A DNA stretch of 64,000 bases from a virus. The DNA is taken from positions 32,001-96,000 of the IMG/VR virus record IMGVR_UViG_3300023179_000029; one strand, written 5' to 3'. The position numbers were made by a program, and so were the translations under genes. The notes below the pieces were generated by a model. It saw only the letters and a list, made by a program, of their open reading frames with translations. It had not been told where the DNA came from and did no database searches. Position 1 is the first letter of the stretch, and every line of letters begins with the position of its first letter. Below, piece by piece: positions 2 to 58,600 of this stretch.

Positions 2-1642
2 CGTAAATATTGGCTTGATATTGTTGAAATCATTACATCGCGTATTTCAGGATATGGCGTTCACCCATCAGGAGTTGTTGTTGCCGATGTGCCTCTTAAC
101 GACGAGCTTCCATGCATGTGGAACCGTCAGCAGGAAGTACAGGTAACCTGTTTTCCAATGGCCGATGTTGATAAGCGCATGTTCGTCAAACAGGATCTTC
201 TTGGTCTTCGCAACCTTGATACATTGCAGGAATGGGAGAATGAATCGGGCAATATTATTGATTGGTCAAAGCTTGATGACGGCCCAACTGAAATGTGGGA
301 GATGCTTGATCAGGGATTGACTCTGGGCGTATTCCAAATTGAGAAGGGATACGCTAGGCAGCTTTGTAAGGAGTTCAAGCCGCGATCTATCGAAGACCTT
401 GGGATTATTGTTTCTTTGAACCGTCCGGGTCCAATTCGCTCCGGTGCGCCGCAGTCATTCATCAATCGTCGTAATGGTGTTGAAGCAGTAAGTTACGATC
501 ATCCAATTCTTGAGGATATCCTTGAGCCAACTTATGGATGGTTCTTGTATCAAGAGCAGGTTATTGCTTTCTTTAACAAGCTTGGCTATTCGCTTTCTGA
601 ATCCGATGCAGTTCGTAAGATCCTTGGTAAGAAGAAGCCCGAGCAGATGGTCGCACTTTACAACGGTGAGGGTGAATGGAAGGATCGCGGGTTTGTTCAG
701 GTGTGTCTTGAAAATTATATTGATCAAAGCACCCTTGACATCATTTGGAATAAGCTGGAGGATTTTGCTAAGTATTCATTCAATAAGTCACATGCTATTG
801 CATATGCCACGATTGCCTTCAGGACGCTTTACGCTAAGTACACTGCGCCCGCTGAATTCTTGATGGCCTGTATTCGAACAAATCCCGATGCCGCTGGCGA
901 GTATGTTGCCGAGGGTCGTAGAATGGGCATTAATGTTATGCCACCAGATATCCTTAAGTCGCAAAAGGATATCGCTGTCGTTGACAATCAAATCGTTTTT
1001 GGATTCTTCAACATCAAGGGAATCGGCAAGAATGCAGCAGAGCGGATTATTGAATTCAGAGAAAAGTATGACATTACATCGCCTGAAAAGTTGTCAGACG
1101 CTATTGATCAAGAGCAGGATCTTTGGGAGTGGGCCAAGCAGGATGCAAAGAAGAAAGGTGAGCCATATAATGTTCGCTCACCCCGACAGACAGTTACAGC
1201 AAACAGGATCCCTGCTTTGTACGACGCAGGCGCATGGGATAATTACGAAACCCGTGACATCTCTTTAAGCGAAAAGCAAAAGCTAGAGCGGCAGATGCTT
1301 GGCGTCATCCTTACCGATGAAACCAATCAGGTATTTGCAATCAATCAAGATATGGTTGACGAATGTGATGAGTATGTTGATCTGGAATACGGCGAAGATG
1401 GAATCATTGTTAAACTTCCGGGCGTCGTATCTAGTTGCGTTGAAAGGTACACAAAGAAGGATGGCAAAGCAATGGGTATCGTCAATATTGAATATCAAGG
1501 CGAGGCCGTAGAGTTTGTTGTTTTCCCGAAGGATTGGGATGCATATAAGTTTGTATGGAAGGAAATGACTCCGGGTATATTTAGCTTGACAAAAACAGAA
1601 AAAGGTGTTAAATTTAATGACGCCACGGTATTAAGGAAATAA
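2..1642 (+). CDS. dnaE: DNA polymerase III alpha subunit (C-terminal part; gene begins before the window)
   Basis: Frame is open from base 2 (..GYGVHPSGVVV..). DnaE motifs KQDLLGLRNL, GVFQIE, LNRPGP, YQEQV, FAKYSFNKSHAIAY, IKGIG and a C-terminal OB fold. Confidence 0.96.
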   Translation, partial: RKYWLDIVEIITSRISGYGVHPSGVVVADVPLNDELPCMWNRQQEVQVTCFPMADVDKRMFVKQDLLGLRNLDTLQEWENESGNIIDWSKLDDGPTEMWEMLDQGLTLGVFQIEKGYARQLCKEFKPRSIEDLGIIVSLNRPGPIRSGAPQSFINRRNGVEAVSYDHPILEDILEPTYGWFLYQEQVIAFFNKLGYSLSESDAVRKILGKKKPEQMVALYNGEGEWKDRGFVQVCLENYIDQSTLDIIWNKLEDFAKYSFNKSHAIAYATIAFRTLYAKYTAPAEFLMACIRTNPDAAGEYVAEGRRMGINVMPPDILKSQKDIAVVDNQIVFGFFNIKGIGKNAAERIIEFREKYDITSPEKLSDAIDQEQDLWEWAKQDAKKKGEPYNVRSPRQTVTANRIPALYDAGAWDNYETRDISLSEKQKLERQMLGVILTDETNQVFAINQDMVDECDEYVDLEYGEDGIIVKLPGVVSSCVERYTKKDGKAMGIVNIEYQGEAVEFVVFPKDWDAYKFVWKEMTPGIFSLTKTEKGVKFNDATVLRK

Positions 1643-5791: not shown

Positions 5792-7680
5792 AATTATTAA
5801 CATCGGATCTTCTTCTTGAAATGGACGAGAAGGGAGCCGATTACATGAAGGATTTTGTAATCCTTGATCGCCATCCCGAATTTGTAGATCAATGGCTTGT
5901 CAATGCTTTTGACGAGTCATTTTTCTATGACGTTGAGAATTTCATTGGTCGATATCGCACAGTCTCAACTGCTCGTATTGATGAATTCACAGAGCTTTGT
6001 AAACAGCTTGGCAAAGAAATCGTTTGGACAGAGGACCCTACTCCAAATATTGATAAGCATTTATCATTGAACAATGTTCCAGAAGTTGCGATTGAATCTC
6101 CGTTTGAAAACACAATCAACGGATTTCTACCTTTTCAAGTTCAAGGATTCAATTTTCTTAAAGATCTTGATGGCGGAGTTATCGAATGGTCAACTGGTGC
6201 TGGCAAAACTATTTGCGCGTCGGCATTGATCAAATATCATTACGACAAGCACAATTTTGATCTTGCTCTGTTTGTCGCCAAGAGTCATAACAAGGTAAAC
6301 GTCCAGAGAAGCCTACAGACCCTAGTAGGAATTGATTCTGCGGTTATTACAGGGGATAAGACCAAACGTAAAAAACTTTACGCAGAGGCCGATTCTGACC
6401 GAGCCGTAATCATTCTTAACTACGAAAAATTCAGAACTGATACTGAGGACATCAAAAATCTTGTCGAAGGCAAGAAGGTGCTTGTCATTTGGGACGAAAT
6501 GCCCGTCAAACTTAAGAATCGTTCATCGCAAATGTATAAGGGGGTAGTTGAGTGCTTTTACACTACTCCGCCGCCACAAGTGTCTGCGGATAAAACTCGC
6601 GCCGAGCTTCGTCAGTACATGATGTCGGCCACGCCTATTGAGAATAACCCAGAGGATTTTTTCAATTGCGTTCGTCTTATTGACCCAAATATTTACGGGA
6701 CCGTCAAAGAATTTAGAAATGAGTACGTCAAGCGGTTTGATTACTTTGATCGCAATAAACCTGCTGAATGGCATAACCTTGACAAGATGGGGTTGAAAGC
6801 ATCTCATATTATTCATCAAGTAGATAAAACTCATCCCGATATTGCCAAGATGTTCCCGAGTGTTATTTCAGAAGTTTGTTACATCGATTGGGACGACAAA
6901 CAACGGTCACTTTATGAAAAAATTCGCAAAATTGTCAGAAAGGCGGATCCTGATGATATGAACATCCTTGCCGCAATTACCATTCTGCAAATGGTTTGTG
7001 ACCTTCCGAGTATGGTTACTAACTCTGCCGCCACATACGAAGCGTTTGAAGAGGCATTTGAATACGCCATCGAAAACGGAGGGGATCTGCCAGAGAAATC
7101 GGGATCTGAGATTGCAGCAAAGCTTTTGGCAGAAATTGGAGTTGACCAAATCACTAATGACGGTCACGCCAAGCTAGAAATGCTTCAATCATTGATTACA
7201 GATGTTCATGCCGATGAAAAGATTACGGTGTTTTCCGCATTCAATAATGGCCTTATGCCCGACCTTAGAAAGTACTTTGATGAGTGGGGCGTGTCGCATG
7301 TATATTATGGCGGCTCTTCTAAGCAACGTCAGGAGGCCGAGGACAAATTCAAATCCGATCCGAGTGTCAGAGTGTTCCTTTCTTCTGACGCAGGCTCAGA
7401 TTCGATTAATCTAGAAGTCGGCTCAGTGTGCATTCATTACGACATGCCATGGAAATGGTCTACCTACACTCAGCGAGAGAATCGCATTCACCGAGTAACA
7501 TCTGAATTTGAATCAGTCAAATTTTACACTTTGCTTATGGCTAATTCTGTTGAAGACAGAAAGCGCCAAGTTATTCTGGACAAAATGGGATATCACGATG
7601 CCATTTTTAATGGAGCTATTGCCGATCAGGCAATTAGTCAAAGAATGACTAAAAAAGATTTTATGTATATATTAGGTTAG
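5788..7680 (+). CDS. SNF2-family helicase/ATPase
   Basis: FLPFQ, STGAGKT, IWDEMP, SATPIEN, SDAGSDSINL, YDMPW, QRENRIHR. Confidence 0.9.
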   Translation: MKLLTSDLLLEMDEKGADYMKDFVILDRHPEFVDQWLVNAFDESFFYDVENFIGRYRTVSTARIDEFTELCKQLGKEIVWTEDPTPNIDKHLSLNNVPEVAIESPFENTINGFLPFQVQGFNFLKDLDGGVIEWSTGAGKTICASALIKYHYDKHNFDLALFVAKSHNKVNVQRSLQTLVGIDSAVITGDKTKRKKLYAEADSDRAVIILNYEKFRTDTEDIKNLVEGKKVLVIWDEMPVKLKNRSSQMYKGVVECFYTTPPPQVSADKTRAELRQYMMSATPIENNPEDFFNCVRLIDPNIYGTVKEFRNEYVKRFDYFDRNKPAEWHNLDKMGLKASHIIHQVDKTHPDIAKMFPSVISEVCYIDWDDKQRSLYEKIRKIVRKADPDDMNILAAITILQMVCDLPSMVTNSAATYEAFEEAFEYAIENGGDLPEKSGSEIAAKLLAEIGVDQITNDGHAKLEMLQSLITDVHADEKITVFSAFNNGLMPDLRKYFDEWGVSHVYYGGSSKQRQEAEDKFKSDPSVRVFLSSDAGSDSINLEVGSVCIHYDMPWKWSTYTQRENRIHRVTSEFESVKFYTLLMANSVEDRKRQVILDKMGYHDAIFNGAIADQAISQRMTKKDFMYILG

Positions 7681-10545
7681 ATTATTATTCCAATTATTTT
7701 CTGTGTCAGCCTTTGGATATACAACGGTGTTATAAACAAAATCTCGGTTATGATTATCGGTGCCTGTTAAAACAACATGCATAAAACCATTTTGACCACC
7801 GCCGCCATCGTATTTATAATAGTGAGAAGTTTGTATAACTCCATTAATAGGCTGTTGAGCTTGATAACCCGCCGCAGTTGTTGCAAAAGCGCCCCTTGTT
7901 ACATTTTTAAATGTGACAATTAGATCTTGATTATCAATTTTTAACCAATTGGAAGAATTTTGATTAGGAGTCGTTGTTGTGGCGGCATGAGCTTGTATTG
8001 ACACGTATGGAACATTTTTATAAATTGCTAATTCGCCAACCGAAGTACCTGCGTAATGATTCGCTGCAATTGTTTCTTGTTGACCTCTTGTGCAAGTCAA
8101 AGTCGTTAAAGTTGGCCCCGGAGTCCAAAAAGAAACATTTGAAGTGGTGCTGTTAACGGCTTTATTTAAAGTTAATTGCTGCCCATTTAAAATTTTATAA
8201 TTTTTATAAATTGGAAGCGCACCACCAGTAGAGCTTGTTAAATCAGAACCCAATGTTACTTCAACCATAACATTGGCATTTTTAGTTACAACTCCGTTAG
8301 ATCCGGTAACACCGTCAGTCAAAGGATCCATTGTACTAGGGTTGCTGGTTTTTCCAACTACATTAAATTGATTAATTATAGTTTGTCCATCTATGATTTG
8401 ACTTACAATCGCAGTTACTGTAAATGTACCATTATACGCGGCAATTCTTGCATCAGAAATTGTAACAATATCATTAACAGCTAAAGTATGATTATCTGTT
8501 GTATATATACTGTACGTAGTTCCTGAGGCCGTTGCGTAAACAATGTCAAATGATGGAGTTAAACCGTCATATTTTATTTTAAATGATTTTGACAAAGAAG
8601 TTGTCGACCCAGATTGTGTACAAACGGCAGTTATCGTATTTGCGTTTGTATATCCCGTAATTGTAAATACTGCCGTGTTTGCTGTTAAAGTTCCATTAAT
8701 AATTTCTTTTGTTTTAAATGCATTTCCGGTTGTATATAAAGTATAAGTGTTGTTTTTTAGAAAAGTAAGCTCGGTTGTTAAAGTGGCGCCCGTACTGGTT
8801 GTTAAAGTACCAATAATGACCGGTTGCCCCACATCTGTTACTTGATAAGAATTAGACGTTATATAGTCTCCTATTTCAATATTATGAGGAGCAGACGTAT
8901 AATAAAAATTTTTATAAACAGCGGGAGCTGCTTCAGATAAAATAGAATTTATAAAACTCCAATTATTATTCAATGATTTATTTGTATCAATTGTAAGTTG
9001 ATTTCTTGAAGAATCATAAGCAGTAATTTTTGCAGATGTTTGATCAGAAAATACAATTGTTTTATTAACCATATTTGAATTAAAAGCGGTCATAAAACCA
9101 GACACCGTTGTTCCATTGCAAGCAATTAAACCATCATTATAAATATTTTGTTTAATATTTGATATATAAGTTTCAGTTGGTATCACAGTATTTGATGCAT
9201 CTTTAATTTGCGAACCAATTTTAAAACTTCCTGAAGTTTCTATTACGTTATTAGCGGTTAAACATTTAACCGATGCATTTGCAGCGTGTACTGCGGGGAT
9301 TGTATTATTTGCTCCTCTAGTTAAATTGATTAATTTATTTCCAGCAGTAATAAGAGTGCCATCAACTAATTTTTCAATTGTCACTCCATTAGTTGAAAGC
9401 GGTGGCTCTATACCCACCGGATCAGGAAGTTTACTAATCCAATTAATTTGCGTTAAAACTATAACTGTATTTAAAATATTATTGGTAACTTGATACCATC
9501 CATTCCATATTTCCGACCCGGTTCCGGTTGCTGATCCAAAATTGCTTAATTTTAATATTGTGCCCAAAGGATAATTGGTTGCAGGTGAATCCAAGTTTTC
9601 AACCAGAAGATTTCCAAAGCCACTACCGGTTTCTGAAAGAGTAAAGGCATCCGAGATTGTTACAACAAAGTAATCGTAATTTATCTGTTCATTATCAATT
9701 AAAACAGTTCCTGATGGCGGCAAAGTAACGTTGCTGCTCAATGTTAAAAATTGGTCTGCATCAGTTTCGGTAGCGCGATCATCGGTAATAGGAGCAATGA
9801 GTGCGCTTGACAAAGCAACAGTTGGATTATAAAAATTACCAGTGCCAGTAGCAGGCCTATTATCGGTATCAGGATTACTAGTTGTTTTTGTATAAGACAT
9901 TACCTCTTTGTCAACAACAAGATATCCAGAACTAGAAAATTTGTCTGCGTTAGTTCCTAATTCTTTAATTTGAATTGTTGTGTCAGTTTTTGAAACATCC
10001 TTGTACAAAGTTCCGTAACCATAAGATTTGGTCGATGACCAAACGGGAGTAGTCAAATTAATATTCATTTGTGAATAATTAACGTACTCATCTCCCTGCG
10101 ATCCGTTTATTAAAAGCGTTCCGACACTAGGAATTTTTATAAAATCACCATTTAAATCTAATTTTGCTTTAATTTCTGTATCTGTGCTTGATAAATTTTG
10201 ATTAAGAATCAAATTTTCTGGTCCGGAGCCTTCAATATATTCTCCGTCTCCAAATTTTAATTGCCATTTAACAATTTTGTTTGTTTTATTAGAATTAAAA
10301 GAAATAAGATAATTTACCCTGCATAAAGTTGGGTCAGTAAATGTTAAATCAAATTTTGGAACAAAATAATAATCACCAAATTGTGAATTTCTAAAAGTTG
10401 GAGTACTACGAGAGGCAATGGTTCCATTATTATCGTAATATTCGTTTAAAGCAATTGAATATTTAGGAAAATTTTTATTTTTGATACTTTTAATTCCTAA
10501 TCGTGGTTGCAAATTAATTAACATTAAATTTTGAATTTTTTTCAT
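7672..10545 (-). CDS. Virion/baseplate-associated protein: PKD-like domain split by nested beta-module insertions
   Basis: 957 aa, N/T/S-rich; WQLKFGDG ... HYYKY...VVLTGTD PKD-like halves at the two ends; last gene of the baseplate operon. Confidence 0.6.
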   Translation of the reverse strand: MKKIQNLMLINLQPRLGIKSIKNKNFPKYSIALNEYYDNNGTIASRSTPTFRNSQFGDYYFVPKFDLTFTDPTLCRVNYLISFNSNKTNKIVKWQLKFGDGEYIEGSGPENLILNQNLSSTDTEIKAKLDLNGDFIKIPSVGTLLINGSQGDEYVNYSQMNINLTTPVWSSTKSYGYGTLYKDVSKTDTTIQIKELGTNADKFSSSGYLVVDKEVMSYTKTTSNPDTDNRPATGTGNFYNPTVALSSALIAPITDDRATETDADQFLTLSSNVTLPPSGTVLIDNEQINYDYFVVTISDAFTLSETGSGFGNLLVENLDSPATNYPLGTILKLSNFGSATGTGSEIWNGWYQVTNNILNTVIVLTQINWISKLPDPVGIEPPLSTNGVTIEKLVDGTLITAGNKLINLTRGANNTIPAVHAANASVKCLTANNVIETSGSFKIGSQIKDASNTVIPTETYISNIKQNIYNDGLIACNGTTVSGFMTAFNSNMVNKTIVFSDQTSAKITAYDSSRNQLTIDTNKSLNNNWSFINSILSEAAPAVYKNFYYTSAPHNIEIGDYITSNSYQVTDVGQPVIIGTLTTSTGATLTTELTFLKNNTYTLYTTGNAFKTKEIINGTLTANTAVFTITGYTNANTITAVCTQSGSTTSLSKSFKIKYDGLTPSFDIVYATASGTTYSIYTTDNHTLAVNDIVTISDARIAAYNGTFTVTAIVSQIIDGQTIINQFNVVGKTSNPSTMDPLTDGVTGSNGVVTKNANVMVEVTLGSDLTSSTGGALPIYKNYKILNGQQLTLNKAVNSTTSNVSFWTPGPTLTTLTCTRGQQETIAANHYAGTSVGELAIYKNVPYVSIQAHAATTTTPNQNSSNWLKIDNQDLIVTFKNVTRGAFATTAAGYQAQQPINGVIQTSHYYKYDGGGGQNGFMHVVLTGTDNHNRDFVYNTVVYPKADTENNWNNNLT

Positions 10546-13322
10546 AGTTCATCTCTCCAAACAAAGTTGCCCAAGGTTGCATAAACGGGTAACGTTTTAA
10601 CGCTGTCTATAGAAGCGTAATGACTTTTAGCCCTTGCTCTAAATTGTAAATCAATATTTTTTTGATTAAAAATCACTCCATCGTTAATTTTATTTATTGT
10701 ATTTTCAAGATCTATCCAATTTTCTGAATCATAATTGATTAATGAACTTGAATCAGAGCGCATTTCCCAACTAATTAATCTTTTTTTAATTGATAAGTGA
10801 TTTATCCACCATTGGGTTTCATTTTTAGTGTAAGGTAATAAAATAGCCAATTTATAATTACCACATATAAAATCATTAGATTTAAAATAAACATTTACAT
10901 TATGCCAAGAATTTGTTTTATAATAACTTGGAATTAAAGAATGTGTCAATTTATTTTGAGAATTAATTAAAACAAATTGCAATTCATTTGTTGGAGACCA
11001 AAGATTTAAATTGATATATATATCTTGAACATCTTCAATATAAAATTCATTAGTAACTATACCTTTTACAAAAGAATTAGCGGATAAATAAGTTTTAGTG
11101 CTAATGGTATTGTTGTATTTTTCTTTATCTTCTGAAATTACGCTGTTATTATAACTAGATAAACTTTTAATTAATTCAATATTTTCTGAATAATCCGCAA
11201 ACAATCTTGCGCCTTTAACCGGGGTTCTGCTACGCATGGGCCTTGTCTTATATTCGCCGTAAACTAACCCTCTAGATTTAATTGAATTGATATAAGAATC
11301 TCCGTCTATTAAGGACGCCGACCAACCAATTCGGCTTCGCGATCTAGAAAATAATAATGTATTATAAATTTTATCCGTTTTATAAATCAATTTTGGTTGA
11401 TTATACTCGTTATACCTATACAAATAAATTTGTAATGCATCATCTTCTAAAATTGGATTAAAAATAATTTTTTGATTATTTAACAAAATTCCACTAGTTG
11501 CGGTAATTGCCGTTCCTGAAGAAATTGTACCAGTTGCGGCTGCTGACATTGTAACCGTTGTTGTGCCAATAATATTGGCAATTACAGTCCCAGAAGGAAT
11601 ATTTGATGATCCTGACAAACTTGCCCCGACTTTAAAAGTACTTGGAACAGAACTAAATGATAAAGTTTTAGAACCACTTGAGGTACTAGCACTTGTATTT
11701 GCCGCCGTAGATGTAAAAGTTGGAATTGTAAAACTATATAAAGCAGTTGATCCAGAATATGAATCTGATATTTCAATTGATCCAGCGTAACTTGTTGGAG
11801 AACTGCTGGCATTTTTATACCAATTAAAATTAATTTTTAAATAATCAATTTTATTTGAATTAATAATTTGCATTAATTCGTTTTGATTTTTTGCATCAAG
11901 CGCGCTTTGATTTAATAAATTTAAATCTTTTTGAGTTAAATTAATATAGTAATTGTCAAGCGTTTCTAAATTTTGACCAGCAGAGGTTAAATAACCTTGA
12001 TTGAAACTTGTTGGAATTGTTGCAGTAATTGATGTGTTTGAAGAGATGGTTGCAGTTGCAGGTAGAGACATGATTACTTGGTTACCTGTAACATAACTAA
12101 TTGTTGCGCCAGTCGGAACATTCGTTCCGGCAAGTGAAGCACCAACTACAAAATTTGTACCCGGAGCGCTTGCAAAATTCAAAGTACTTGAGCCAATTGC
12201 AGTTGCATTATTAGTATTTGCAGTTGTTGAAACCCCTGTACTTGGACCACCAAGATTCATTTGAGTAATTTTTTTATTATTTAAATTAAAATAAAATGCA
12301 AATTGGTTTGAATTAGCGCCGGTAGTACCGGTTTGACTTAAAGTTACGTCGCCCAATTCAATTTCAGCCGCAATCGAACCATTTAAAATTTTAGGATCAT
12401 AAGAAGTAAATAATTTATCAAAACTTCTTACAAAAACAGAATTATTATTTAATAAATCTGTACTAGGAAATGCAGCAAAATTATTTGGAAGAGTTTTTGC
12501 TATTTTATTATTAATAGTATTAATATCTAATTGGTAATTGCGCCAATCCGCGCTAACGGCACGTATACTTGCACATTGAAAATTGCAACTGCCAGTTGCC
12601 GTAATTCTAAATCTTACAGCAGTAATCGCAGAAAGGTCGCAATTTTTTAAAGTTAAATTATTTAAATCTGAAATCAAACATTTAAATTCATAATTACCAG
12701 AAGATCCAGTAATTGCAGATACTCGGCCAGTAAAAGGAATCGATGTTGTTTTATCATCTGCAAATGAGCCAGTTGCATCTGACGAAATATCTAAATAAGA
12801 AGTACTTGCAGTAATGCTTGAATTAGGGTAATTTGGAAAAGTGGCAATAATATAATCAGTTGAAGCAAAATTTGAAATATCAATTATATTTGAAGATAAA
12901 ATCGATGTTGCACTTTTTGTTCCAGACGCGCATGTTAAATTGATACCATAGAACCCATTTAATACTTTGTCATTTAGAACAGTTGAATCGCTACTAGTCC
13001 AATTTTCATTTGTTGTAGACCCAATTGATTGAACGCTACCTGATCCAGAGTTTAAAGTTCTTCCGCTTAAATAATAAACCGCATCTGTTGATGTACCAAC
13101 TTTATATTGATACAAATCATAAACAGAAATGCTATTTGTTGAAGATTTATAGAAAGATCGGATGTCTGTATGCTTTTGTAAAATTAAACGATCTGCTTGG
13201 GCAACATCATACATTGTATAATTATTCCAAAGTCCATTGTTATCTGAAAAATCATCAGAAATAGAGTCTTTGTAAATTTTTTCTAATTCTTCAAATGTGT
13301 TATAAGTCATTTTGCTTTCCAA
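10542..13322 (-). CDS. Virion/baseplate structural protein with a duplicated ~70-aa beta module
   Basis: 926 aa; two copies of GSxTLxFxSxP..FxVGASLxG..(V/I)PxG..I....MS..AT.TISS.TxITAT. Confidence 0.6.
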   Translation of the reverse strand: MESKMTYNTFEELEKIYKDSISDDFSDNNGLWNNYTMYDVAQADRLILQKHTDIRSFYKSSTNSISVYDLYQYKVGTSTDAVYYLSGRTLNSGSGSVQSIGSTTNENWTSSDSTVLNDKVLNGFYGINLTCASGTKSATSILSSNIIDISNFASTDYIIATFPNYPNSSITASTSYLDISSDATGSFADDKTTSIPFTGRVSAITGSSGNYEFKCLISDLNNLTLKNCDLSAITAVRFRITATGSCNFQCASIRAVSADWRNYQLDINTINNKIAKTLPNNFAAFPSTDLLNNNSVFVRSFDKLFTSYDPKILNGSIAAEIELGDVTLSQTGTTGANSNQFAFYFNLNNKKITQMNLGGPSTGVSTTANTNNATAIGSSTLNFASAPGTNFVVGASLAGTNVPTGATISYVTGNQVIMSLPATATISSNTSITATIPTSFNQGYLTSAGQNLETLDNYYINLTQKDLNLLNQSALDAKNQNELMQIINSNKIDYLKINFNWYKNASSSPTSYAGSIEISDSYSGSTALYSFTIPTFTSTAANTSASTSSGSKTLSFSSVPSTFKVGASLSGSSNIPSGTVIANIIGTTTVTMSAAATGTISSGTAITATSGILLNNQKIIFNPILEDDALQIYLYRYNEYNQPKLIYKTDKIYNTLLFSRSRSRIGWSASLIDGDSYINSIKSRGLVYGEYKTRPMRSRTPVKGARLFADYSENIELIKSLSSYNNSVISEDKEKYNNTISTKTYLSANSFVKGIVTNEFYIEDVQDIYINLNLWSPTNELQFVLINSQNKLTHSLIPSYYKTNSWHNVNVYFKSNDFICGNYKLAILLPYTKNETQWWINHLSIKKRLISWEMRSDSSSLINYDSENWIDLENTINKINDGVIFNQKNIDLQFRARAKSHYASIDSVKTLPVYATLGNFVWRDEL

Positions 13323-17134: not shown

Positions 17135-20100
17135 TTAAACTTTGTTCCAAGTGTTTTGTGCTTTAACCCTAATGGTTATCATATTTGAAATATCGGTGCT
17201 ATCGGCCTGTGGTAAGGGCAACGAAGCCAATTGATTATCGCCAAGTAAGAAATCATTGTTAAAAACTGTACTTGATTCAATCATTAATTCAGGATTTGTA
17301 ATTGTCAACTCATTAATATCACTATTGTTGATGTAAGTAATTGTATATGGATTATCGACAGTCGGCATAGCAGATGGATCGGTTGCAGAAACTGTTGCAA
17401 AATAAGACAATTTTGCATTTAACGATGTTGCTGTAAGCCCAGCCAAAGTGACATCAATAATATTATTTAAATAATGAAATTTTAATTTACCAGAGGTATT
17501 TGAATTAGTTAAATAAAATAAATACGACGTTGGTTGAGTTCCGCCCAAATTGCCTTCGCCAATACTAACCTTTTGCAATGAATATTTTATAGTTTCTCCA
17601 TATTTATTAACTTCAGTCAATCTATTTCGAGGATTGCCATCATCGTCTGTAGAATTAGTTAAATCGTCTTTAGACCATTTAACATTGTCTACTCCACTAG
17701 TGTTGTGAATTACTTGTAAAATATCTGAAAGTTGAATGATAGAACCAAAGTATTGATTATCAAAATAAGATTTTAAACTGGTGACAATATTGTTGTTAAC
17801 AGTTGTTGGATTTTGCCCTTTATCATACATGACCGTAATATCTGGTTTAAAATATCTAATAACAGATTCGTGTACAAGTACATCCGTAGTTACCTGTTTT
17901 GCATTATCGATTGCAGCCTGAAGCGTAACAATATTTCCATTATATGTATAATTTTCAATTGAAAGGGTGTGCTCAGTAGCGTCAAATAATGTGTTAATAT
18001 TACTTTTTGCTAAATGCGCATCAGCAATTGTGGAATTGTCACCTCTAGTAGTCAAAAAGATGCGATTACCAATTTTTTCCCAATAGTAATTGTCTACATC
18101 AGGGGTTGTTGGAATTTGTTCTCCGCCAGAACCAGTGGTGTAACTGTATGAAGTTTTGCAGCGATATGCTCCATCGTTATAGCAAGCGAATGAACTGACC
18201 GTTGCTCCTAATGAATGAGCGGCGATTGTGGTTCCATTTACGCCTCTTGCTAATATTGTGAAAGTATTAGTGGAAAGCGATTTGTAAGAAATTAATTCTT
18301 CGTCAATTAACACAACAAAAGGTTTTGATTGATCGATAGGAACTGGAAATCCGGAACCTGATGTAACTGCAAATGTCGATCCATCACTTGCGGTCGCGGT
18401 TAAATTGGCAGACAAAGTGCTTGTTCCGTATTTTTGCAAAGTGTTAGTAGTCCCAAACCATATTCCCTGATCATTGGAGCTTGATGGTGAATCAATAAAT
18501 GCAAGCCACCCGCTATCTGATGGAGTTGGAGTAGCTGAAGCTTTTTTATAACCAATTTGTTCGCTATCAATAATCAGTTTTCCAAAATCTGGAAAAAGAA
18601 TTGATTCGTTGTATTTAATAATTGTGCCAATACCTGAAACAGAATCTGCACTTGCTCCAATTGACAAAGCTAGTGATGCGCTCGCCCCAGCACTATCTGT
18701 AATATATTGACCACTATACGGTCCCTCATCTGTATCTGTGCTAGACTTTGCTTTAATTTTAATTGCCCACTCAATGCCGTTCCTAGCCCGAATGGTCCCT
18801 CTTAAATCAGTGACATCTTCAACTTCCCAATAATGAACATTTTTAATAAATGTTCCATATTTGGTTGATATAGTATTTGGTAATTCGATAAGTGGCTGAT
18901 TTAAAATTGGCGTATAAACGTGCCCGGGAACTGGACAAGATTGCGTACTGTTTTTTCTTCTAAAATTTTTATAATAAAGGTAATTTGTCGCATCATCTTT
19001 AATAAATTTTTTAACAGGAACATAATTACCCGGCCGAGCCATTACAACATTTGCCAAAACCGCATCAAGGTTATCTACATAAATATCAACGCAATTGAGT
19101 ACTCCTCTTAAATAATCATTTCTTGAAGCAGAAGAAAGGTAAGAATATTCAAAAAATAAAACGTCTTTTGGACTAATTGTTTGAATATTATCTTCGTCAC
19201 CCGTGTAAACATTTGTAAATGTAATATTCGGTTGATAGATAACTGGAGTTGCTGTGCTTAAGGGATTGGAATTAATACCCTTTTGAAATTCTCGATAAGC
19301 GTCTCCTCTGTTTTTAGTAGAGGGGGTAACGTTCATTACAAAGTCGGCATCTTGTGTATATATTGTAATTAAAGAAGTTGTGTCATCAGATACATGGTAA
19401 GGCAAATTATCATAAACAAATTTTGCGTTTGTGTTTGTTGATAACGCGGTGGTATATTCTAAATCATTTCCATTTCCGCTAACATTGTCAGGCAAATCGG
19501 GCACCTGAATGTATTCTGTGTATTTTGACGACGGTCCAATAACTGTTGCTTTTTTCGACAATGTTGATAAAGCTAAAGCTAAATAATTATCCTTGGTCCC
19601 CGCTAGGTTTCTGAATGGCCCGGTAGCAGTAAATCTAGCTTTTAATTGATCATCAGATTCTTTATTAGTCCCTCCAACGATTGGAGCTTCGTTATTAATG
19701 CTGACAATGCTCCCGATGGCGGCTCCGTTCCAATCGGTGATTGTATTAGCGGGAACATTTCCTTTTTCTCCGGACTCAATGCATTCAATTGGCACAATGA
19801 CATCCTTGGTACCGGCAGCCATAATAACTGATCGGTTACTGATAAAAGTTACATCTGACCCATTGTTTACAGCTTTGGCTAAAAATTGTGTACCGGCAGG
19901 AATTCTCAATGGCGCATCGGCGTTTGTATTTCTAGATAATTTAAGAAATCCACTGGCCTTTGTGCCGACTTGTCGACCAAAACCAAAAAGGCCAAGCATA
20001 TTGTCAAGATCGGCGCCCACTTTTGCGTCAATATCAAGACCACCATTTAGAATATTTAAATCAATTTGATTTTCAGCAATGGCTTGCGCGACCGCTTCAA

Positions 20101-20200
20101 TAATTCTACGCTCAGGAGTTCCCTCAATGAGAGACATTGAGGGGACCTTAAATCTAAGGTCATTAATAATATTATCAATAATTTGCTGTTGCGTTGCCAT
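17135..20200 (-). CDS. Baseplate J-like wedge protein with insertions
   Basis: GADLDN..LFGFGR, ASGFLKLSR, IPAGTQF, GEKGNVPANTIT, GGTNKESDDQLKAR; 1021 aa. Confidence 0.9.
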   Translation of the reverse strand: MATQQQIIDNIINDLRFKVPSMSLIEGTPERRIIEAVAQAIAENQIDLNILNGGLDIDAKVGADLDNMLGLFGFGRQVGTKASGFLKLSRNTNADAPLRIPAGTQFLAKAVNNGSDVTFISNRSVIMAAGTKDVIVPIECIESGEKGNVPANTITDWNGAAIGSIVSINNEAPIVGGTNKESDDQLKARFTATGPFRNLAGTKDNYLALALSTLSKKATVIGPSSKYTEYIQVPDLPDNVSGNGNDLEYTTALSTNTNAKFVYDNLPYHVSDDTTSLITIYTQDADFVMNVTPSTKNRGDAYREFQKGINSNPLSTATPVIYQPNITFTNVYTGDEDNIQTISPKDVLFFEYSYLSSASRNDYLRGVLNCVDIYVDNLDAVLANVVMARPGNYVPVKKFIKDDATNYLYYKNFRRKNSTQSCPVPGHVYTPILNQPLIELPNTISTKYGTFIKNVHYWEVEDVTDLRGTIRARNGIEWAIKIKAKSSTDTDEGPYSGQYITDSAGASASLALSIGASADSVSGIGTIIKYNESILFPDFGKLIIDSEQIGYKKASATPTPSDSGWLAFIDSPSSSNDQGIWFGTTNTLQKYGTSTLSANLTATASDGSTFAVTSGSGFPVPIDQSKPFVVLIDEELISYKSLSTNTFTILARGVNGTTIAAHSLGATVSSFACYNDGAYRCKTSYSYTTGSGGEQIPTTPDVDNYYWEKIGNRIFLTTRGDNSTIADAHLAKSNINTLFDATEHTLSIENYTYNGNIVTLQAAIDNAKQVTTDVLVHESVIRYFKPDITVMYDKGQNPTTVNNNIVTSLKSYFDNQYFGSIIQLSDILQVIHNTSGVDNVKWSKDDLTNSTDDDGNPRNRLTEVNKYGETIKYSLQKVSIGEGNLGGTQPTSYLFYLTNSNTSGKLKFHYLNNIIDVTLAGLTATSLNAKLSYFATVSATDPSAMPTVDNPYTITYINNSDINELTITNPELMIESSTVFNNDFLLGDNQLASLPLPQADSTDISNMITIRVKAQNTWNKV

Positions 20201-20664
20201 TATAAACCTAATATAATTTCAATTGTTTCAATAGACCCAGAAGCGCTTTTTAAATGCACTTTTACATCTAATTTATCTAAATTTTGTTTAATATCAATAG
20301 CTTCAATTCCGGCCAAAACCTCTCCCTTGGTCAAAGATTGGGAGTTATATTTCATTTTGTCAGCTTTCGCTCTAGCCAATTGTCTGGATTGATAATTTCC
20401 TACAATTCTTAAAATTTCAGACCTTACTCTTAAATCTACCATTGATAAGTCGGTATCGCCAATAATACTTTCGTAAATGACTCCATCAGAGTTTACGCCT
20501 CCATCAATTAACGAACCGTATGAAGGGTTGTTTAAATCAGATCCCATAGGTTGTTTTAACTCAAGAGTTAAATCTTGAATCATTTTGTTTTCGTTATCGA
20601 CGGTTTCTAAACCTTTTGGACCAATTGCTAAATCTCCATTTTGTAATTTTAAACTCCAAGTCAT
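20200..20664 (-). CDS. Baseplate wedge / sheath initiator (gp25/gpW-like)
   Basis: SLKLQNGDL..., QDL..EL..PMGSD..NPSYGS; immediately upstream of baseplate J. Confidence 0.75.
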   Translation of the reverse strand: MTWSLKLQNGDLAIGPKGLETVDNENKMIQDLTLELKQPMGSDLNNPSYGSLIDGGVNSDGVIYESIIGDTDLSMVDLRVRSEILRIVGNYQSRQLARAKADKMKYNSQSLTKGEVLAGIEAIDIKQNLDKLDVKVHLKSASGSIETIEIILGL

Positions 20665-24023: not shown

Positions 24024-25205
24024 TTAATTGGTGGGTTCTTTACCATTGTATCGTTTATACAAACCATAAATGGCTTTTGCTGCTTCTTCCGCATCAGTAA
24101 CAAAGTCACCAGATGTTCCAACATATCTACTTTTTACGGGACCGAGATTGGTATTTCCGGGGTATTTATAAGTTAAACCAAAATTTGGGGTCTTTGCATA
24201 ATTTCCTTTGTATTTACCAAATTCACTTTCATGACCATATACTCCCCATAAAACGGTAAAAGGAATTTTCCATTTTTTGGCCTTTTCTGCAATGACCTTT
24301 CGATCATTTGGATTACCGCCATTCGCGCCGTTGCTCAATGCTTTTCTATAAACCTGTTCAGCATCATATTTTCCATCAGAATAATGGTTAACTGTCGATA
24401 TCCAATCAGAGCCTATATTTTTAACAGCGTTATCGCCCGAACCTTCACCAGAATTATTTGAACTTTGATCGTTATTGGCATAAGTTGAATTACCATATTT
24501 GGAAGCACCAATAATATTATTTAAATATTGATGAAATTCTTTAATAGAAGACGCGCTTTCTTTTGCCGCATCAGCGTATAATTTCCTAACAATTTCTGAA
24601 ATTTGTTCGCCCGGCAGTTCTTGAATATAAATATTATCACCGTTCCAACCTCCAATTTCAGTTAAAATTGAATAAAGTAAATTACCAATACTAGTGTCGT
24701 TTAAACCAGTCGTTTTGCGGGCTTCTTTTTCAGGGCTTAATGCCGTACCGTCAAGTGTCACTCCCCAACCATGTGCATCCATAAATGCTCTTACAAAAGG
24801 CAAAGCGGGGTCCCAGTATGTGTATTGCAATCTTTTAAGCGTACAAGAAGCATCTATGGCAACTATGCCCGGCAATAATTGCACATGCGGCGTTGTATCG
24901 CAATACCCCGTAAATACCTGAATGGGACGACCTTTTAATCTGGTCATTGTAATTGTAATCGGATCCATGGGATGAAACATTGGGCGAATGGATCCATCGC
25001 TTCCAATATGTTCTGTAAACATTGATCTTATTTGACCACTTGTTTCATCTGAAATTCTAGGATTTCTAAATTCGATTCTTGCATAGCTAGTTGCATTAAT
25101 CCTACGATCAACTTGTACATCCGTGATGTAAGGACTTAAATCAAAGACGCCCGAATCGGATTTAATCCAAACATTAACTGATGGTGAATAAACTAATCTC
25201 TTCAT
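24024..25205 (-). CDS. Hub N-terminal paralogue 3 + lysozyme-fold hydrolase (GH73/GH23-like)
   Basis: Shared MKRLVYSPS...CTLKRLQYTYWDP domain; C-terminal IAEKAKKWKIPFTVLWGVYGHESEFGK...NFGL. Confidence 0.7.
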   Translation of the reverse strand: MKRLVYSPSVNVWIKSDSGVFDLSPYITDVQVDRRINATSYARIEFRNPRISDETSGQIRSMFTEHIGSDGSIRPMFHPMDPITITMTRLKGRPIQVFTGYCDTTPHVQLLPGIVAIDASCTLKRLQYTYWDPALPFVRAFMDAHGWGVTLDGTALSPEKEARKTTGLNDTSIGNLLYSILTEIGGWNGDNIYIQELPGEQISEIVRKLYADAAKESASSIKEFHQYLNNIIGASKYGNSTYANNDQSSNNSGEGSGDNAVKNIGSDWISTVNHYSDGKYDAEQVYRKALSNGANGGNPNDRKVIAEKAKKWKIPFTVLWGVYGHESEFGKYKGNYAKTPNFGLTYKYPGNTNLGPVKSRYVGTSGDFVTDAEEAAKAIYGLYKRYNGKEPTN

Positions 25206-25211
25206 TTTATT

Positions 25212-26369
25212 TTAAACCGGTGATGCTATGCCAAGTTCTTTGCAAATTTTGCGAACGTAAGCAATAGTTTCATTAATTGTTTTCCATGAACCATTATCTG
25301 CTCTTACAGGGCCAGCGTTATAGGCCGCTAAAGACAGCGGAATGTCCCCATTATATTTTTTCAAATATGTTTTGAATTCTATTACTCCAGCGTCAATGTT
25401 TTTAGCATTGTCTGTACGAATTTCATTTGCACTATATCCACTTTGCTCTTCTACAAATTGAGGCATTAGCTGCATCAGCCCAACTGCCCCCGCGCCCGAT
25501 CCCGCATTTGGATTGAAATCAGATTCTGCTCTAATGATTGCGCGGATAATATTTGGATCAACCCCATGTTTTCTACAAGCTTGGGATATTAATCGCTCTA
25601 CCCAATCCGGACCTCGGCTACCAGATTTAGTTTTTTCAGTAGACACGGGGCTGCCGGTATCTGGCTCGCTTCCACCGGCCGAACCATATGCAGAGGCTCC
25701 AATTATTTGATGCAAAAATTCATGAAATTCTTTAATAGATGATGCATTCTCTTTTGCTGTGTCACTATATAATTTTTTAACGATTTCTGAAATCTGTTCA
25801 CTTGGTAATTCTTGAATATAAATATTTTTATCGTTCCAACCGCCAATTTCTTTTAAAATTTGATGTAATAAATAACCGATGCTGCCATCGTGTAATGAAC
25901 CATTGAAGCGATTATCTGTATTAAATGCAGTCCCTTCCGCAGTGACCGACCATCCCGTTTTATTCATAAAATCTCTGACAAAGGGCAAAGCGGGGTCCCA
26001 GTATGTATACTGAAGCCTTTTTAAAGTACAGGAGGCAGTAAGTTCAGCGTTACCCGGTAATAGTTGAACGTATGGCGTTGTGTCGCAATATCCGGTAAAT
26101 ACCTGAATGGGCCTGCCCTTAAGACGAGTTAAGGTGATAATGATCGGGTCCATTGGGTGAAACATTGGACCAATAGAGCCATTGATTTCATGTTCTGTAA
26201 AAAGCATTTTATTGTCGACTTTAGGATTTCTAAATTGAATGCGGGCATAACTGGTCGCATTAATTCTACGATCAATGTTAAATCCTATAATATAGGGACT
26301 TAAATCAAAAACACCTGAATCCGATTTAATCCAAACATTTATAGAAGGAGAATAAACGAGTCTTTTCAT
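25212..26369 (-). CDS. Hub N-terminal paralogue 2 + lytic transglycosylase (SLT/GH23)
   Basis: Shared N-domain; C-terminal AIIRAESDFNPNA.SGAGAVGLMQLMP...LAAYNAG...ETIAYV. Confidence 0.85.
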   Translation of the reverse strand: MKRLVYSPSINVWIKSDSGVFDLSPYIIGFNIDRRINATSYARIQFRNPKVDNKMLFTEHEINGSIGPMFHPMDPIIITLTRLKGRPIQVFTGYCDTTPYVQLLPGNAELTASCTLKRLQYTYWDPALPFVRDFMNKTGWSVTAEGTAFNTDNRFNGSLHDGSIGYLLHQILKEIGGWNDKNIYIQELPSEQISEIVKKLYSDTAKENASSIKEFHEFLHQIIGASAYGSAGGSEPDTGSPVSTEKTKSGSRGPDWVERLISQACRKHGVDPNIIRAIIRAESDFNPNAGSGAGAVGLMQLMPQFVEEQSGYSANEIRTDNAKNIDAGVIEFKTYLKKYNGDIPLSLAAYNAGPVRADNGSWKTINETIAYVRKICKELGIASPV

Positions 26370-26370
26370 T

Positions 26371-52409: not shown

Positions 52410-52819
52410 TAGATAATTATCCAGTTTGATCCGTTTGATTGAACAGTTATTGATTGATATTGTTTAGAAATAGAATAAGTGGTCGCGTTATCAATATATT
52501 GCTGAGATGGAGACGTTGCCGCTACAACTGTTATTGTACCGGCGCCACTATTTTTAATATTATACACCCTGCCTGTTACTCCCACAGCCGTCGGCAAAGT
52601 AACAGCAAATGTATTAGCCGTGCAATCAACCGTATGATCGGTTCCATCAAGAGTCCTTGCTGAAGTAATAGCTCGATACGGTTTATTAATTGCCCCGCCA
52701 AAAGAAATGTAACCGGCGTTTCCGGGAAGTAGTTGGATGGTAGTAACAAGAGAGGTACCTGAATCGCCAATGATAATATCAGCTGGTCCTCCTACGGAGG
52801 GCAAATAAGCCCTCATCAT
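52409..52819 (-). CDS. Fibre tip-like protein
   Basis: VTLPTAVG..GRVYNIKNSGAGTITV...IDN...SITVQSNGSNWIII. Confidence 0.7.
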   Translation of the reverse strand: MMRAYLPSVGGPADIIIGDSGTSLVTTIQLLPGNAGYISFGGAINKPYRAITSARTLDGTDHTVDCTANTFAVTLPTAVGVTGRVYNIKNSGAGTITVVAATSPSQQYIDNATTYSISKQYQSITVQSNGSNWIII

Positions 52820-55610: not shown

Positions 55611-58600
55611 CTAACCCATAGAAACAATCGGGTTACCTTTTCGAGCTAAAGTTTCTTTCATTTTAACTTCTAAATACACTGTATTAATATTAAAATTAGA
55701 CACATTAAAAGTTGTATAAGATTTAGTATGGGTTGTTTGACTAGACGAATTTATCGGTTTATTGATGATAATAAACATGCTATCCAAAGTGTCTTGATAA
55801 AATTGCCCAGTATTCTGTTGTCCTAATCCATTATCAGCTTGCACCCATCCATTTGTATTATTTTTAAACGAAATTTTAGCATTGGGTTCAGCAGTAGCAA
55901 AAATATCTGTATACAAATTCATTGTTCCAAGAGTGGCATCAACGGCATCAATATTGCCATCGGTAAACTGATCTGCATAGACGGCCGCAATTGATATGTA
56001 TTTAGTTGAAGGGCGCGTATAAGTACTTGGAGTGGTATTAATTGCACTAACTCTTAAGTTTGATGGATCAAAATATGAATTGTTTGAAATTTGCTCCCCG
56101 GTGTTTACGTCTTTCCAAATACCGGTCGCACTATCTTTATAAAGAGAAATTTTAATCCAAACAAAATCAGTTGGGTTCGTGTCACAAGTTCCTATTAATT
56201 GCCAATATGAATTTGTATCATATGGATAAGTTGTATTAATACTGTAATAATTATTGTTTTGTAAACTTCTATATACTCTGTATATGCCATCATCTTGTTT
56301 GTAAGAAATTAAATCGCCAAGTGAGTAAGTAATTCGTGGATAGTCTGGGCCGGGAGGATTAGTGGCCCCAGTTTTAAGACCCTGCCTACCAGCAGAATCA
56401 GTTCCAAGAATATCTGGATTAAACCAATTGCCTTTATAGTTAATTGTTTTATAATTGGAAGACCTTGTAGAATCATAAAGTTTAATGGTGGCTGTTAAAG
56501 GCGCATTAGTTGCATTAATGTAAGCGCCGGTGTGAATATTAGATGCGGGTTTCCAAACAGTGGTTCCATCCTTGGTCATCGTCAATGTATTGTTAGATTT
56601 ACTTAAAACATAAACCCCCCGGTCGATCACTCCGGAATCGTCGGCCAAAAATGCTCCGACTCCAAAGTTGGCAATTGTTGAACTATTTGCAAAAGTTAAA
56701 ACGCCACTAGTAGTAAGGGTAGCGGCCGAGGTTTGTTGGCGGGTCGCCTTATCAGAATACCCAGTAAATAAGCAAACCCATACATCGATTTGATAAACAC
56801 TTTTACCACTTGGAAGTGATGAAGGAGTTGATAACGTCCAATCCATAAATTCAGTAGAAGAATTCGATACAGAGTTTCTAACTATGGTCGTTGCGAGAGG
56901 TGTAATGCCTCTGACTGTAGCTCCGGCGTTATGAGTTGTTGGAATAGTATTACTATAACCTCGTCCAGTTGATGGAACAGTTAAAACATTGCCAGATTTT
57001 GTGTATTTAATATATTCTTCATCAATAAGTACAACCCCAGATGCGGCGAACGCGCTTGCGCTTGCTACGGTAAACGAAATCGACCCTGCTGTGCTAGTAA
57101 TTGCCGTTGACAAGGTTGTGGTTCCCGTGCCATTAACGGCGGCGACAAAATCAGATCCCGATGGATATATCGACCATCTAGTACCGCTTTGAGTGGCAAC
57201 CGAAGGCCTTTGATTTCTAAACACCATGGCATTGGTGTTATGATTAAAATTTGCAACCGGTTTAATATAAAGAATGTCTTGATTACTACTTTTGTAAAAA
57301 CTATTAAAGTACATTGCAAGAGCGCCATCTGAATCAATTGAATTAAGGTATATAGTAGAATTTTGAGGAAGGGCGGATCCACTTTTTGTTAATTGGGTTT
57401 GAGCAGTATAAGATCCATCAATTGTGATGGTTGGTTCGTTAGTAGGAGACAATGAATCAGATTTTAAGAAACTAAATCCAGAAGAACCTTCAATGTCCCC
57501 TTCGGGAATCATGTACCTATTACCAATAATTTCCGGTTTATTTACATTTTGATCCGAAAAATTAGAAGGGCCATCATACGCTGAATGAATTGTAGAACTT
57601 TCAGGGTTATCAATTGGGGCATCATTTATAAATGGGTTTAACGAATCATAAATATACTGACTTTTATAAATATCACTAGTCCATGGATACCAACGAGAAG
57701 ACCCTAAATAAGTAAATTTATAATAACCTTGATAGCTATTTAAACCGCCAGCAAGATATCTTTTGCTGTTTAAAATATAATTAGTTGTTTGACGAACCGT
57801 AGTATTAAGTGGGAATGCGCCTTCTTCTAATATTGTCGGTTTATTATAATCTTTAAATATCGATAAATTAACTGCCAAATCAGTTGGAGCTTTGTATGAA
57901 ATTGGATATTGATGAGGTGAAAAAATATTGACTAAATCATTAATATTAGCCGGGCCAAAACCGTTTGTAAATTCACTAGATTTGCCATAAAAACTTGTGC
58001 TTGGAATGGTGATTGGTGTATACTGGTCTCCTCCAGTATTACGAATTGCATCTTTCATTTTTATAATCCAATTGCGAACAACAGTTTTACTATTGACACC
58101 TCTGGGCATAAGTGACAAATAAGGAATATAATGCCTATCTGAATTAAAAAAGGACTGTCCAACCCATTGAGTATCATTAGTAATAGTGCAGGATTCAGGC
58201 AATGAAGAAGACACTACGCCATTAGAATTTGACAATGTGACGGTATAAAGACCATTTGAATCAACAATTGTGTCGCCAGTAGTAAATGATATTCTGCCAT
58301 CTTTCGGAATTGTTTCACCATAAATGCGATAAGTCGTATTTGGCTTCAATTGTTGGCGCGAATAGGTCGCATTTTCAATTGATGGGGTGCTAGATGGCAC
58401 AGGTCCAATAACGGTAAAAATATTTGGAGAGAGAACGGTTTTAACGGTATAACTTCCATTGACGTTTGATGGTGTCGCCCCAGAAATTGTAACCTTATCG
58501 CCAATTTTTAAATAATGCGGACTACCCGTGGTATATGTATATGTGTATATTGATCCTGACGACGATACCGTGACGCCATAATCCGGCAATAGTGCATCGT

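Follow-up and report, generated by a model that had tools for sequence, protein, structure and literature searches.

The closest described relatives of the architecture reported here come from phage baseplates and from a transcription enzyme. In the structural report on phage JBD30 (PMC11445458), the hub protein carries a small six-stranded barrel, domain VI, which extends from the FN3-like domain V. The region Si3 in the trigger loop of the cyanobacterial RNA polymerase beta' subunit (RpoC2) is described (PMC10895346) as containing eight sandwich-barrel hybrid motifs (SBHMs), four of them discontinuous, in an elongated body 150 Å long, and a 2026 survey of 2.7 million domains lists Si3 as a six-level nested architecture (PMC13114784). 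The full-text literature searched gave no example of a phage protein with nested or recursive insertion of domains. Here we describe P0001, a protein of 957 amino acids (aa) encoded by an open and intact open reading frame (ORF) on the minus strand (7672..10545) of a stretch of viral DNA of 64,000 nucleotides (nt). This stretch (the window) covers positions 32,001 to 96,000 of the IMG/VR record IMGVR_UViG_3300023179_000029 and is a section of a single 127,398-bp contig. An initial annotation of the window proposed that the domains of P0001 are nested inside one another in mirror order, and half-domain matches, short relatives, a two-chain structure prediction, and structural alignments of the full-length model all agree with this proposal. 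Five nesting levels in P0001 have direct support.

All of the motifs on which the proposal was built (13/13 strings) were found in P0001 in the order given, starting at residues 94, 142, 152, 168, 207, and 279 on the outgoing part of the chain and at residues 409, 819, 841, 866, 883, 908, and 924 on the returning part; the coordinates assigned to them agree to approximately 40 nt, with the exception of IYKNVPY (approximately 85 nt off). The recurrent unit, termed module A, has the core GxxLIDxExIxY ... RGxxxTxAxxH with invariant E, R, G, and H. A hidden Markov model (HMM) of 77 positions was derived from 140 uninterrupted copies in 75 non-orthologous proteins, which were gathered via a profile search of 1.84 billion representatives. 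Against this HMM, P0001 yields three N-terminal halves followed by three C-terminal halves, with scores between 8.0 and 30.5 bits (Table 1). The halves have complementary HMM coordinates, and every break falls at positions 43-49; this common break point corresponds to the beta4-beta5 turn in the model of an intact copy. Of 500 shuffled versions of P0001, none reached the 8 bits of the weakest half (maximum 4.5), and two neighboring large ORFs scored below 0 against the module-A HMM. In a whole-genome motif scan, module A was present in only three ORFs, namely P0001, a Baseplate_J-like ORF, and a 1807-aa ORF. The halves of A1, A2, and A3, when joined in silico, score 37.3, 64.9, and 66.2 bits, respectively, as single full-length module-A domains, so that the excised constructs do match a family. 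E, R, G, and a histidine are invariant across 45 aligned module-A copies; A1 of P0001 has another residue in place of this histidine (RGAFATTAAGY, aa 884-895), and A1 of the other orthologs retains it (SH, NH, or AH).

Two short relatives of P0001, P0079 (218 aa) and P0064 (229 aa), begin with a P0001-type N-terminus and have both parts of the sandwich, the first with FGDG and the second C-terminal; between these parts lies an intact module A, which scores 47.2 bits in P0079 and 52.6 bits in P0064. In BLASTP alignments, residues 5-145 of P0079 correspond to residues 12-159 of P0001 (E 3e-12) and residues 154-215 to residues 884-945 (E 2e-9), and thus 8 residues of the short protein stand for 724 in P0001; P0064 aligns in the same manner. 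Judged from these sequence alignments, both proteins appear to be natural empty sites, in which the halves of A1 are contiguous when the insert is absent. The locus of P0079 was not found in an IMG/VR search, and tblastn revealed no second, small copy in the genome that encodes P0001.

Pairing of the halves was also assessed in structure predictions. One was a two-chain prediction in which aa 66-226 (outgoing arm) and aa 806-945 (returning arm) were separate chains, each with a six-row alignment. The interface score ipSAE was 0.74, 0.81, and 0.74, whereas the best of three controls scored 0.00; of 80 solved complexes, 58 attain the ipSAE mark, as do 2 of 110 mismatched pairs, counts that are only rough because a custom alignment was used. 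The runs have at least 94% of contacts in common, and the predicted local distance difference test score (pLDDT) of the partner is at least 84. All 25 of the lowest-error contacts listed are between mirror pairs (14 in A1, 9 in A2, and 2 in the CBM-like unit), e.g., aa 125-127 with 877-879 in A1, 214-215 with 822/825 in A2, and 169 with 840-841 in the CBM-like unit, and the sandwich segments 74-100 and 904-944 also lie within the interface. As a prediction, the two-chain model supports association of the two arms.

The full-length AlphaFold2 (AF2) model has pLDDT values of 70-86 over about aa 80-225 and 780-940. With the program VIA this model was aligned to 48,161 representatives of the PDB, the range reported for each alignment comprising the first and last aligned residue only. 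Matches to PKD domains include that of ColH (4u7k_A; Z 8.0, root-mean-square deviation (rmsd) 1.9, 70 aligned of 86 residues, 24% identity), 4l9d_A (Z 7.9), and 4xed_A (Z 7.5), with model ranges of 73/74..946/947. Among the barrels, the chain of phage GP4 (8jov_1; Z 8.6, rmsd 2.2, 77 aligned residues) spans residues 109..903, and the ranges for 8jov_1, 9n71_B, and 9in6_M together are 108/109..903/905. A compact match of 70-80 residues that extends from approximately residue 73 or 109 to approximately residue 946 or 903 must use both ends of the chain. Thus, the two-chain contacts and the full-length ranges both pair the halves with their mirror partners rather than with adjacent sequence, as the initial annotation had expected. 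Evidence for a compact barrel fold comes from the VIA alignments for A1, from the contacts only for A2, and from the orthologs only for A3. A Foldseek search of the full-length model against the PDB gave nothing at E<=0.001, a list that is uninformative because the global model is poor.

For the PKD-like and CBM-like units, Pfam was scanned on the halves only. The PKD_4 family (PF18911) matches aa 66-113 at 15.2 bits vs. a gathering score of 27 (profile positions 19-52 of 85), and the sub-threshold matches in orthologs P0004 and P0006 (16.5 and 14.8 bits, respectively) preserve the register. P0001 also contains WxxxFGDG, which we take to be a PKD signature. FN3 and other immunoglobulin (Ig)-like domains follow closely behind PKD in the VIA alignments (Z 7.0-7.5). 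The outer sandwich is certainly Ig-like and is likely to be specifically PKD, given the sub-threshold Pfam register, the FGDG motif, and the fold match; since the FN3-type scores are nearly equal, the safe wording is "Ig-like sandwich, probably PKD". The CBM_5_12 family (PF02839) matches aa 836-875 at 16.4 bits vs. a gathering score of 26.2 (profile positions 10-43 of 44). The equivalent part of ortholog P0003 gives 20.7 bits, and a separate uninterrupted CBM-like copy in ortholog P0004 gives 19.3-21.7 bits (profile positions 2-22), both below the threshold. The label CBM5/12-like is accordingly a putative one, drawn from sub-threshold matches in the right register, and this register would place the split near profile position 10, after the first strand. 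Uninterrupted CBM-like copies identified by a regular expression in the hit set amount to three in two proteins, which is too few for a profile.

An uninterrupted CBM-like copy had also been suggested at the N-terminus of the 925-aa ORF 52816-55593; this copy is visible by eye, but Pfam gives 0 families there at E<=10. The N-terminus in question (55324-55593, minus strand) has the CBM5/12-looking pattern W...Y..D.V.Y.G..Y...P...W and, after it, a Gly-rich collagen-like run, GDAGAAGVAGATGPA; elsewhere the ORF matches tail fiber families (phrog_8745).

P0001 shows recursive insertion in the sense of PMC13114784, i.e., at several levels the host domain is discontinuous and its guest lies wholly inside the gap (Table 1). 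Of the layout initially proposed, the order of PKD, A1, CBM, A2, and A3 stands, whereas A3 does not enclose everything that lies further inside: the loop of A2 holds A3, which has its own insert of approximately 109 aa, and then a block of approximately 380 aa (aa 431-812). A linker inside the A2 hairpin precedes A3. The borders are tight, with the N-half of A2 (aa 177) directly after VWSSTKSYGYG and IYKNVPY (aa 841) directly after the C-half of A2, and such linker-free borders fit simple in-loop insertion. The A3 insert (aa 292-400) has no Pfam family and is weakly similar to aa 704-776, which adjoin the stretch equivalent to a sub-threshold E1_FCCH match of ortholog P0002. If this insert, which is missing from four of the six orthologs, is a domain, P0001 likely has a sixth level. 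The initial annotation anticipated that standard searches would miss this architecture, and indeed the whole protein returns 0 families in Pfam (E<=10) and PHROGs.

Table 1. Coordinates of P0001, its layers, and related features of the window, with matches to the module-A HMM
Feature	Residues (aa)	Position in window	Strand	HMM positions	Score (bits)	Remarks
P0001, whole gene		7672..10545	-			terminal gene of baseplate/tail row, convergent with helicase gene
Conserved N-terminal region, presumed anchor	1-72	10330..10545	-			common to the 218/229-aa relatives; AF2 pLDDT <50
PKD-like sandwich, N-part (level 1)	73-113	10207..10329	-			WQLKFGDG; PKD_4 E 0.022
Module A1, N-half (level 2)	114-161	10063..10206	-	8-46	8.0	HMM; contacts aa 877-901
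CBM5/12-like first strand (level 3)	166-176	10018..10050	-			VWSSTKSYGYG; W169 contacts aa 840-841
Module A2, N-half (level 4)	177-224	9874..10017	-	5-48	30.5	HMM; contacts aa 822-839
Module A3, N-half (level 5)	261-291	9673..9765	-	13-43	22.1	HMM
Insert within A3, probable sixth level	292-400	9346..9672	-			AF2 pLDDT <50
Module A3, C-half	401-430	9256..9345	-	46-75	22.3	HMM
Distal block, further small beta domains	431-812	8110..9255	-			beside A3 in A2 loop
Module A2, C-half	813-840	8026..8109	-	47-75	18.8	HMM
CBM5/12-like remainder	841-872	7930..8025	-			IYKNVPY...NWLKI; CBM_5_12 E 0.0092
Module A1, C-half	873-903	7837..7929	-	49-71	11.0	HMM match at aa 878-900; contacts; VIA range
PKD-like sandwich, C-part	904-946	7708..7836	-			HYYKYDGG...VVLTGTDNHNR...VVYPK; BLASTP to P0079 154-215; VIA
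Second nest, Baseplate_J-like ORF		17990..18643	-			A N-half aa 520-557, intact A aa 591-671, C-half aa 706-737
Baseplate_J-like gene		17135-20200	-			PF04865 E 4e-21; phrog_6 baseplate wedge; upstream of P0001
Small baseplate protein gene		20200-20664	-			upstream of P0001
Uninterrupted module A, 1807-aa ORF	1304-1378	56901..57125	-		53.6	copy used for fold model

The comparison covered six orthologs (31-56% identity), and the four outermost levels are present throughout, with P0007 lacking the N-terminal part. Module A3 is intact in four of the six (P0003, P0004, P0006, and P0007; 59.7-75.0 bits), and it is split by approximately 109 residues in P0001 and by approximately 62 in P0002. Further inserts comprise approximately 70 aa inside the loop between strands 3 and 4 of A1 in P0003, an additional CBM-like unit at the border of the sandwich and A1 in P0004, approximately 90 aa ahead of A2 in P0002, and approximately 100 aa behind A3 in P0006. 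Comparison of the number of layers, which the initial annotation had recommended, thus reveals whole inserts that vary at several levels, and the block of aa 431-812 is the most variable part across the orthologs.

Candidates for the content of this inner block were sought in Pfam. Pieces of P0001 give no match to E1_FCCH (PF16190), and sub-threshold matches were obtained for aa 744-789 of P0002 (25.4 bits vs. a cut-off of 29.5) and for P0003 (15.5 bits); an Atlas feature search for an E1_FCCH-like inner block gives 0.88, which is a lead only. A further split domain (aa 440-464 plus approximately 785-800) was suspected from its likeness to two repeats in ORF 10542-13322 and was rejected, as its N-part scores 3.6 bits vs. 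a shuffle maximum of 5.1 and its C-part was not found. These two repeats of approximately 48 aa (aa 390-437 and 562-611 of a 926-aa product, minus strand) are of the FKVGASLSGSSNIPSGTVIANI...TVTMSAAATGTISS type and score 88 bits against each other's profile, with no further copy in the genome or the hit set; a stretch resembling them is inserted in A1 of ortholog P0003.

An uninterrupted module A had been reported near position 57010, and it was recovered there in the 1807-aa ORF. This copy (aa 1302-1380, modeled with 45 aligned copies) folds into six strands with a pLDDT of 92.5 and a predicted template modeling score (pTM) of 0.81. In a Foldseek search against the PDB, the best match of the intact module is 8rk3_b from the JBD30 baseplate (E 3.2e-3; query template modeling score (TMq) 0.74; rmsd 1.8 over 77 columns; 22% identity), a chain that is presumably gp53. 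The second match is a chain of a phage VP1 capsid entry, and the N-terminal barrels of F- and V-type ATPases come next (TMq approximately 0.55); entries 9n71 and 9in6 match the intact copy, too. In BFVD, 34 viral models match module A at E<=0.001; most of them are proteins of uncultured tailed phages, and some are named tail fiber. A sequence profile search of the PDB gave a single weak match, 8vjh_A (E 0.02), and no Pfam family covers the module in the nine hit proteins scanned. Given this lack of a family and the matches to tail proteins, module A is a common but unnamed plug-in barrel (approximately 77 aa, six-stranded) of phage tail proteins.

Splitting of module A is not confined to P0001. 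Among the 136 module-A proteins, an open N-half occurs at least once in 20, and the depth is three or more in 4; in P0052, a pure module-A series (N-N-N-F-C-C-C) occupies aa 1164-1452. In the second nest of the window, that of the Baseplate_J-like ORF, the intact module A scores 59.6 bits. A CBM-like stretch (YRCKTSYSY...YYWEKIG), for which Pfam gives 0 families at E<=10, lies there between the intact module A and the C-half. In P0087 (1218 aa), seven module-A matches between aa 406 and 986 all end at HMM positions 53-54, and no C-half was detected; this protein represents either a shortened barrel variant or a nest with return strands too diverged to be recognized. The giant proteins P0008, P0009, P0012, P0013, and P0029 (4,227-7,633 aa) contain 12 to 28 mostly tandem uninterrupted copies, which indicates that module A serves in beads-on-a-string arrays as well as in nests.

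The best explanation of these observations, in which we place good though not full confidence, is that P0001 is a nested out-and-back protein of the virion (baseplate or fiber region) of an uncultured myovirus-like phage of approximately 127 kb, which would form a baseplate-anchored arm with binding domains. What the evidence supports in this explanation is the order of the nested layers and the pairing of each half with its mirror partner; the function is inferred. The chain runs out via the first parts of five domains and returns via their second parts. As a scaffold, it uses the small protein type that also occurs free-standing at 218-229 aa, with a presumed anchor, a PKD-like sandwich, and a barrel in the sandwich loop; in P0001, the tip of the A1 beta4-beta5 hairpin carries the 724 extra residues. 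The CBM5/12-like unit is predicted to be split after its first strand by A2, the hairpin of which holds A3 and the block of approximately 380 aa. Because the chain goes out and comes back, both termini and the conserved N-terminal region are predicted to lie at one end and the variable inner domains at the other. P0001 may be anchored at the baseplate periphery with both chain ends together there, the nested pairs being stacked as a two-stranded stalk. The innermost variable domains would then be displayed distally, where the inner block and the CBM-like unit may bind host surface polymers, and insertion or swap in the distal loops would change the display without disturbing the anchor or the assembly contacts, in line with the kind of difference observed among the orthologs.

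Several points weigh against this explanation. The module-A HMM is blind to the partnership of N- and C-halves, as all nine of the nine joined combinations score 37-68 bits. The ortholog alignment comprises six rows only. The full-length AF2 model has a mean pLDDT of 53.1 and a pTM of 0.36, with 479 of 957 residues below 50, and the fold is of low confidence in the A3 insert and in aa 521-778. Pairing in this model was read indirectly, from the VIA ranges and the two-chain contact list, and Z values of 7-8 lie where the tool warns of a mere common arrangement. All PKD_4 and CBM_5_12 matches are below the Pfam gathering scores, and the C-part of the PKD-like sandwich (aa 900-950) gave no PKD match in Pfam. 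Finally, binding, oligomeric state, virion position, and extended shape are inferences only.

Among the alternatives, the one that fares best accepts the nest and regards P0001 as a structural or decorative part of the baseplate with no role in host recognition, the barrels being cement or spacers. In JBD30, as reported, barrel domain VI contacts domain VII and stabilizes the baseplate (PMC11445458). The match of module A to a JBD30 baseplate chain given above points in the same direction, as does the fact that no binding domain of P0001 exceeds the Pfam threshold. However, fibers are usually encoded distally in the row of tail genes, which is where the gene lies, the inner block is the most variable part of the protein, and P0001 contains a CBM5/12-like unit; we consider this alternative less likely than not. 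Far less probable is a pairing of the halves between subunits, in a dimer or trimer with swapped domains. Physically, complementation in trans is plausible, given that the arms are predicted to associate as separate chains, and many fiber proteins are generally known to be trimeric, but each pair is contiguous when the insert is absent, both in the 218/229-aa relatives and in the four orthologs with intact A3, and the tight linker-free borders fit simple in-loop insertion. That there is no nesting, and that independent short repeats fold with their neighbors in a coincidentally mirrored order, is scarcely credible: the half-matches of A1 are indeed weak (8.0 and 11.0 bits), but the HMM coordinates are complementary, no shuffle reaches the weakest half, the relatives P0079 and P0064 are natural empty sites, the 25 listed contacts are all mirror pairs, and the discontinuous structural alignments span both chain ends.

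Beyond the nested arm itself, a broader proposal is that module A acts as a general "socket", in which the beta4-beta5 hairpin accepts any payload, and that a 218-aa baseplate accessory protein can thereby grow stepwise into a long mixed-fold adhesin arm; we rate its chances at somewhat below even. If it is true, P0001 and its 218/229-aa relatives form a natural before-and-after series, and a nest of six levels would equal the most complex one presented in the survey of such architectures cited above, with a virus particle as its setting instead of an enzyme.

The P0001 gene closes a row of baseplate and tail genes. Upstream of it on the same strand, in addition to the baseplate genes of Table 1, are a DUF7297 gene, a gene with a match to minor tail protein, and the 926-aa ORF. 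The 3' ends of the helicase gene (plus strand, ending at 7680) and P0001 (minus strand, ending at 7672) overlap by 9 bases (7672-7680). Synteny of P0001 is preserved in one related IMG/VR contig, and no relative of the gene or protein was found by blastn and tblastn among 50,697 GenBank phage records. Elsewhere in the window, three adjacent ORFs on the minus strand (24024-27606; 393, 385, and 411 aa) have approximately 240 N-terminal residues in common and match phrog_2810, a virion structural protein; the middle ORF has an extra C-terminal domain of the lysozyme/transglycosylase type and matches lytic tail protein families.

For annotation, P0001 is an example of a protein composed of recognizable small domains that returns nothing, every domain but the innermost being cut in two. 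It also offers a testable picture of fiber diversification, in which whole domains are added in the distal hairpin of a tolerant barrel and the anchor and chain ends stay fixed, and the short relatives define exact insertion borders that would be useful for display scaffolds or swaps of binding heads. The principle as such is not new, since nested insertion has been published for RNA polymerase and single-level barrel insertion is present in solved phage hub proteins.

The gpJ-type hub chains resemble P0001 in having an Ig-like sandwich that hosts a barrel, and they are aligned with it as one two-domain unit. In VIA, the outer two layers of P0001 match 8gtc_M (Z 10.0, 147 aligned residues), 8vjh_A (Z 8.9, 149 residues), and 8rk3_o (Z 8.5, 157 residues) over model ranges that start at residues 61, 69, or 70 and end at 944-947, with a high rmsd of 5.5-6.4 Å. 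In the hub proteins the barrel is uninterrupted and there is one insertion level, whereas the hairpin of P0001 holds 724 residues and four more levels. Hub proteins of this type are recognized by Phage-tail_3 and similar domains and by a position beside the tape-measure gene. P0001 has no other hub domains in Pfam and, unlike the hub proteins, sits in a myovirus-type baseplate row, its gene lying after the Baseplate_J-like and other baseplate genes; only the unit of FN3-like domain and barrel is common to both.

Si3 and P0001 are alike in their recursive A1-B1-C-B2-A2 insertion, and P0001 also has six levels if the A3 insert counts. Module A is not known to be related to the SBHM of Si3 in sequence or fold, although the two were not compared directly. 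Si3 nests a single fold and belongs to a transcription enzyme, whereas P0001, by our reading a virion surface protein, alternates three folds (PKD-like, barrel, and CBM5/12-like). P0001, for which the natural empty-site relatives are unusually clear, thus varies a principle of protein architecture that is already known, with mixed folds and five to six levels.

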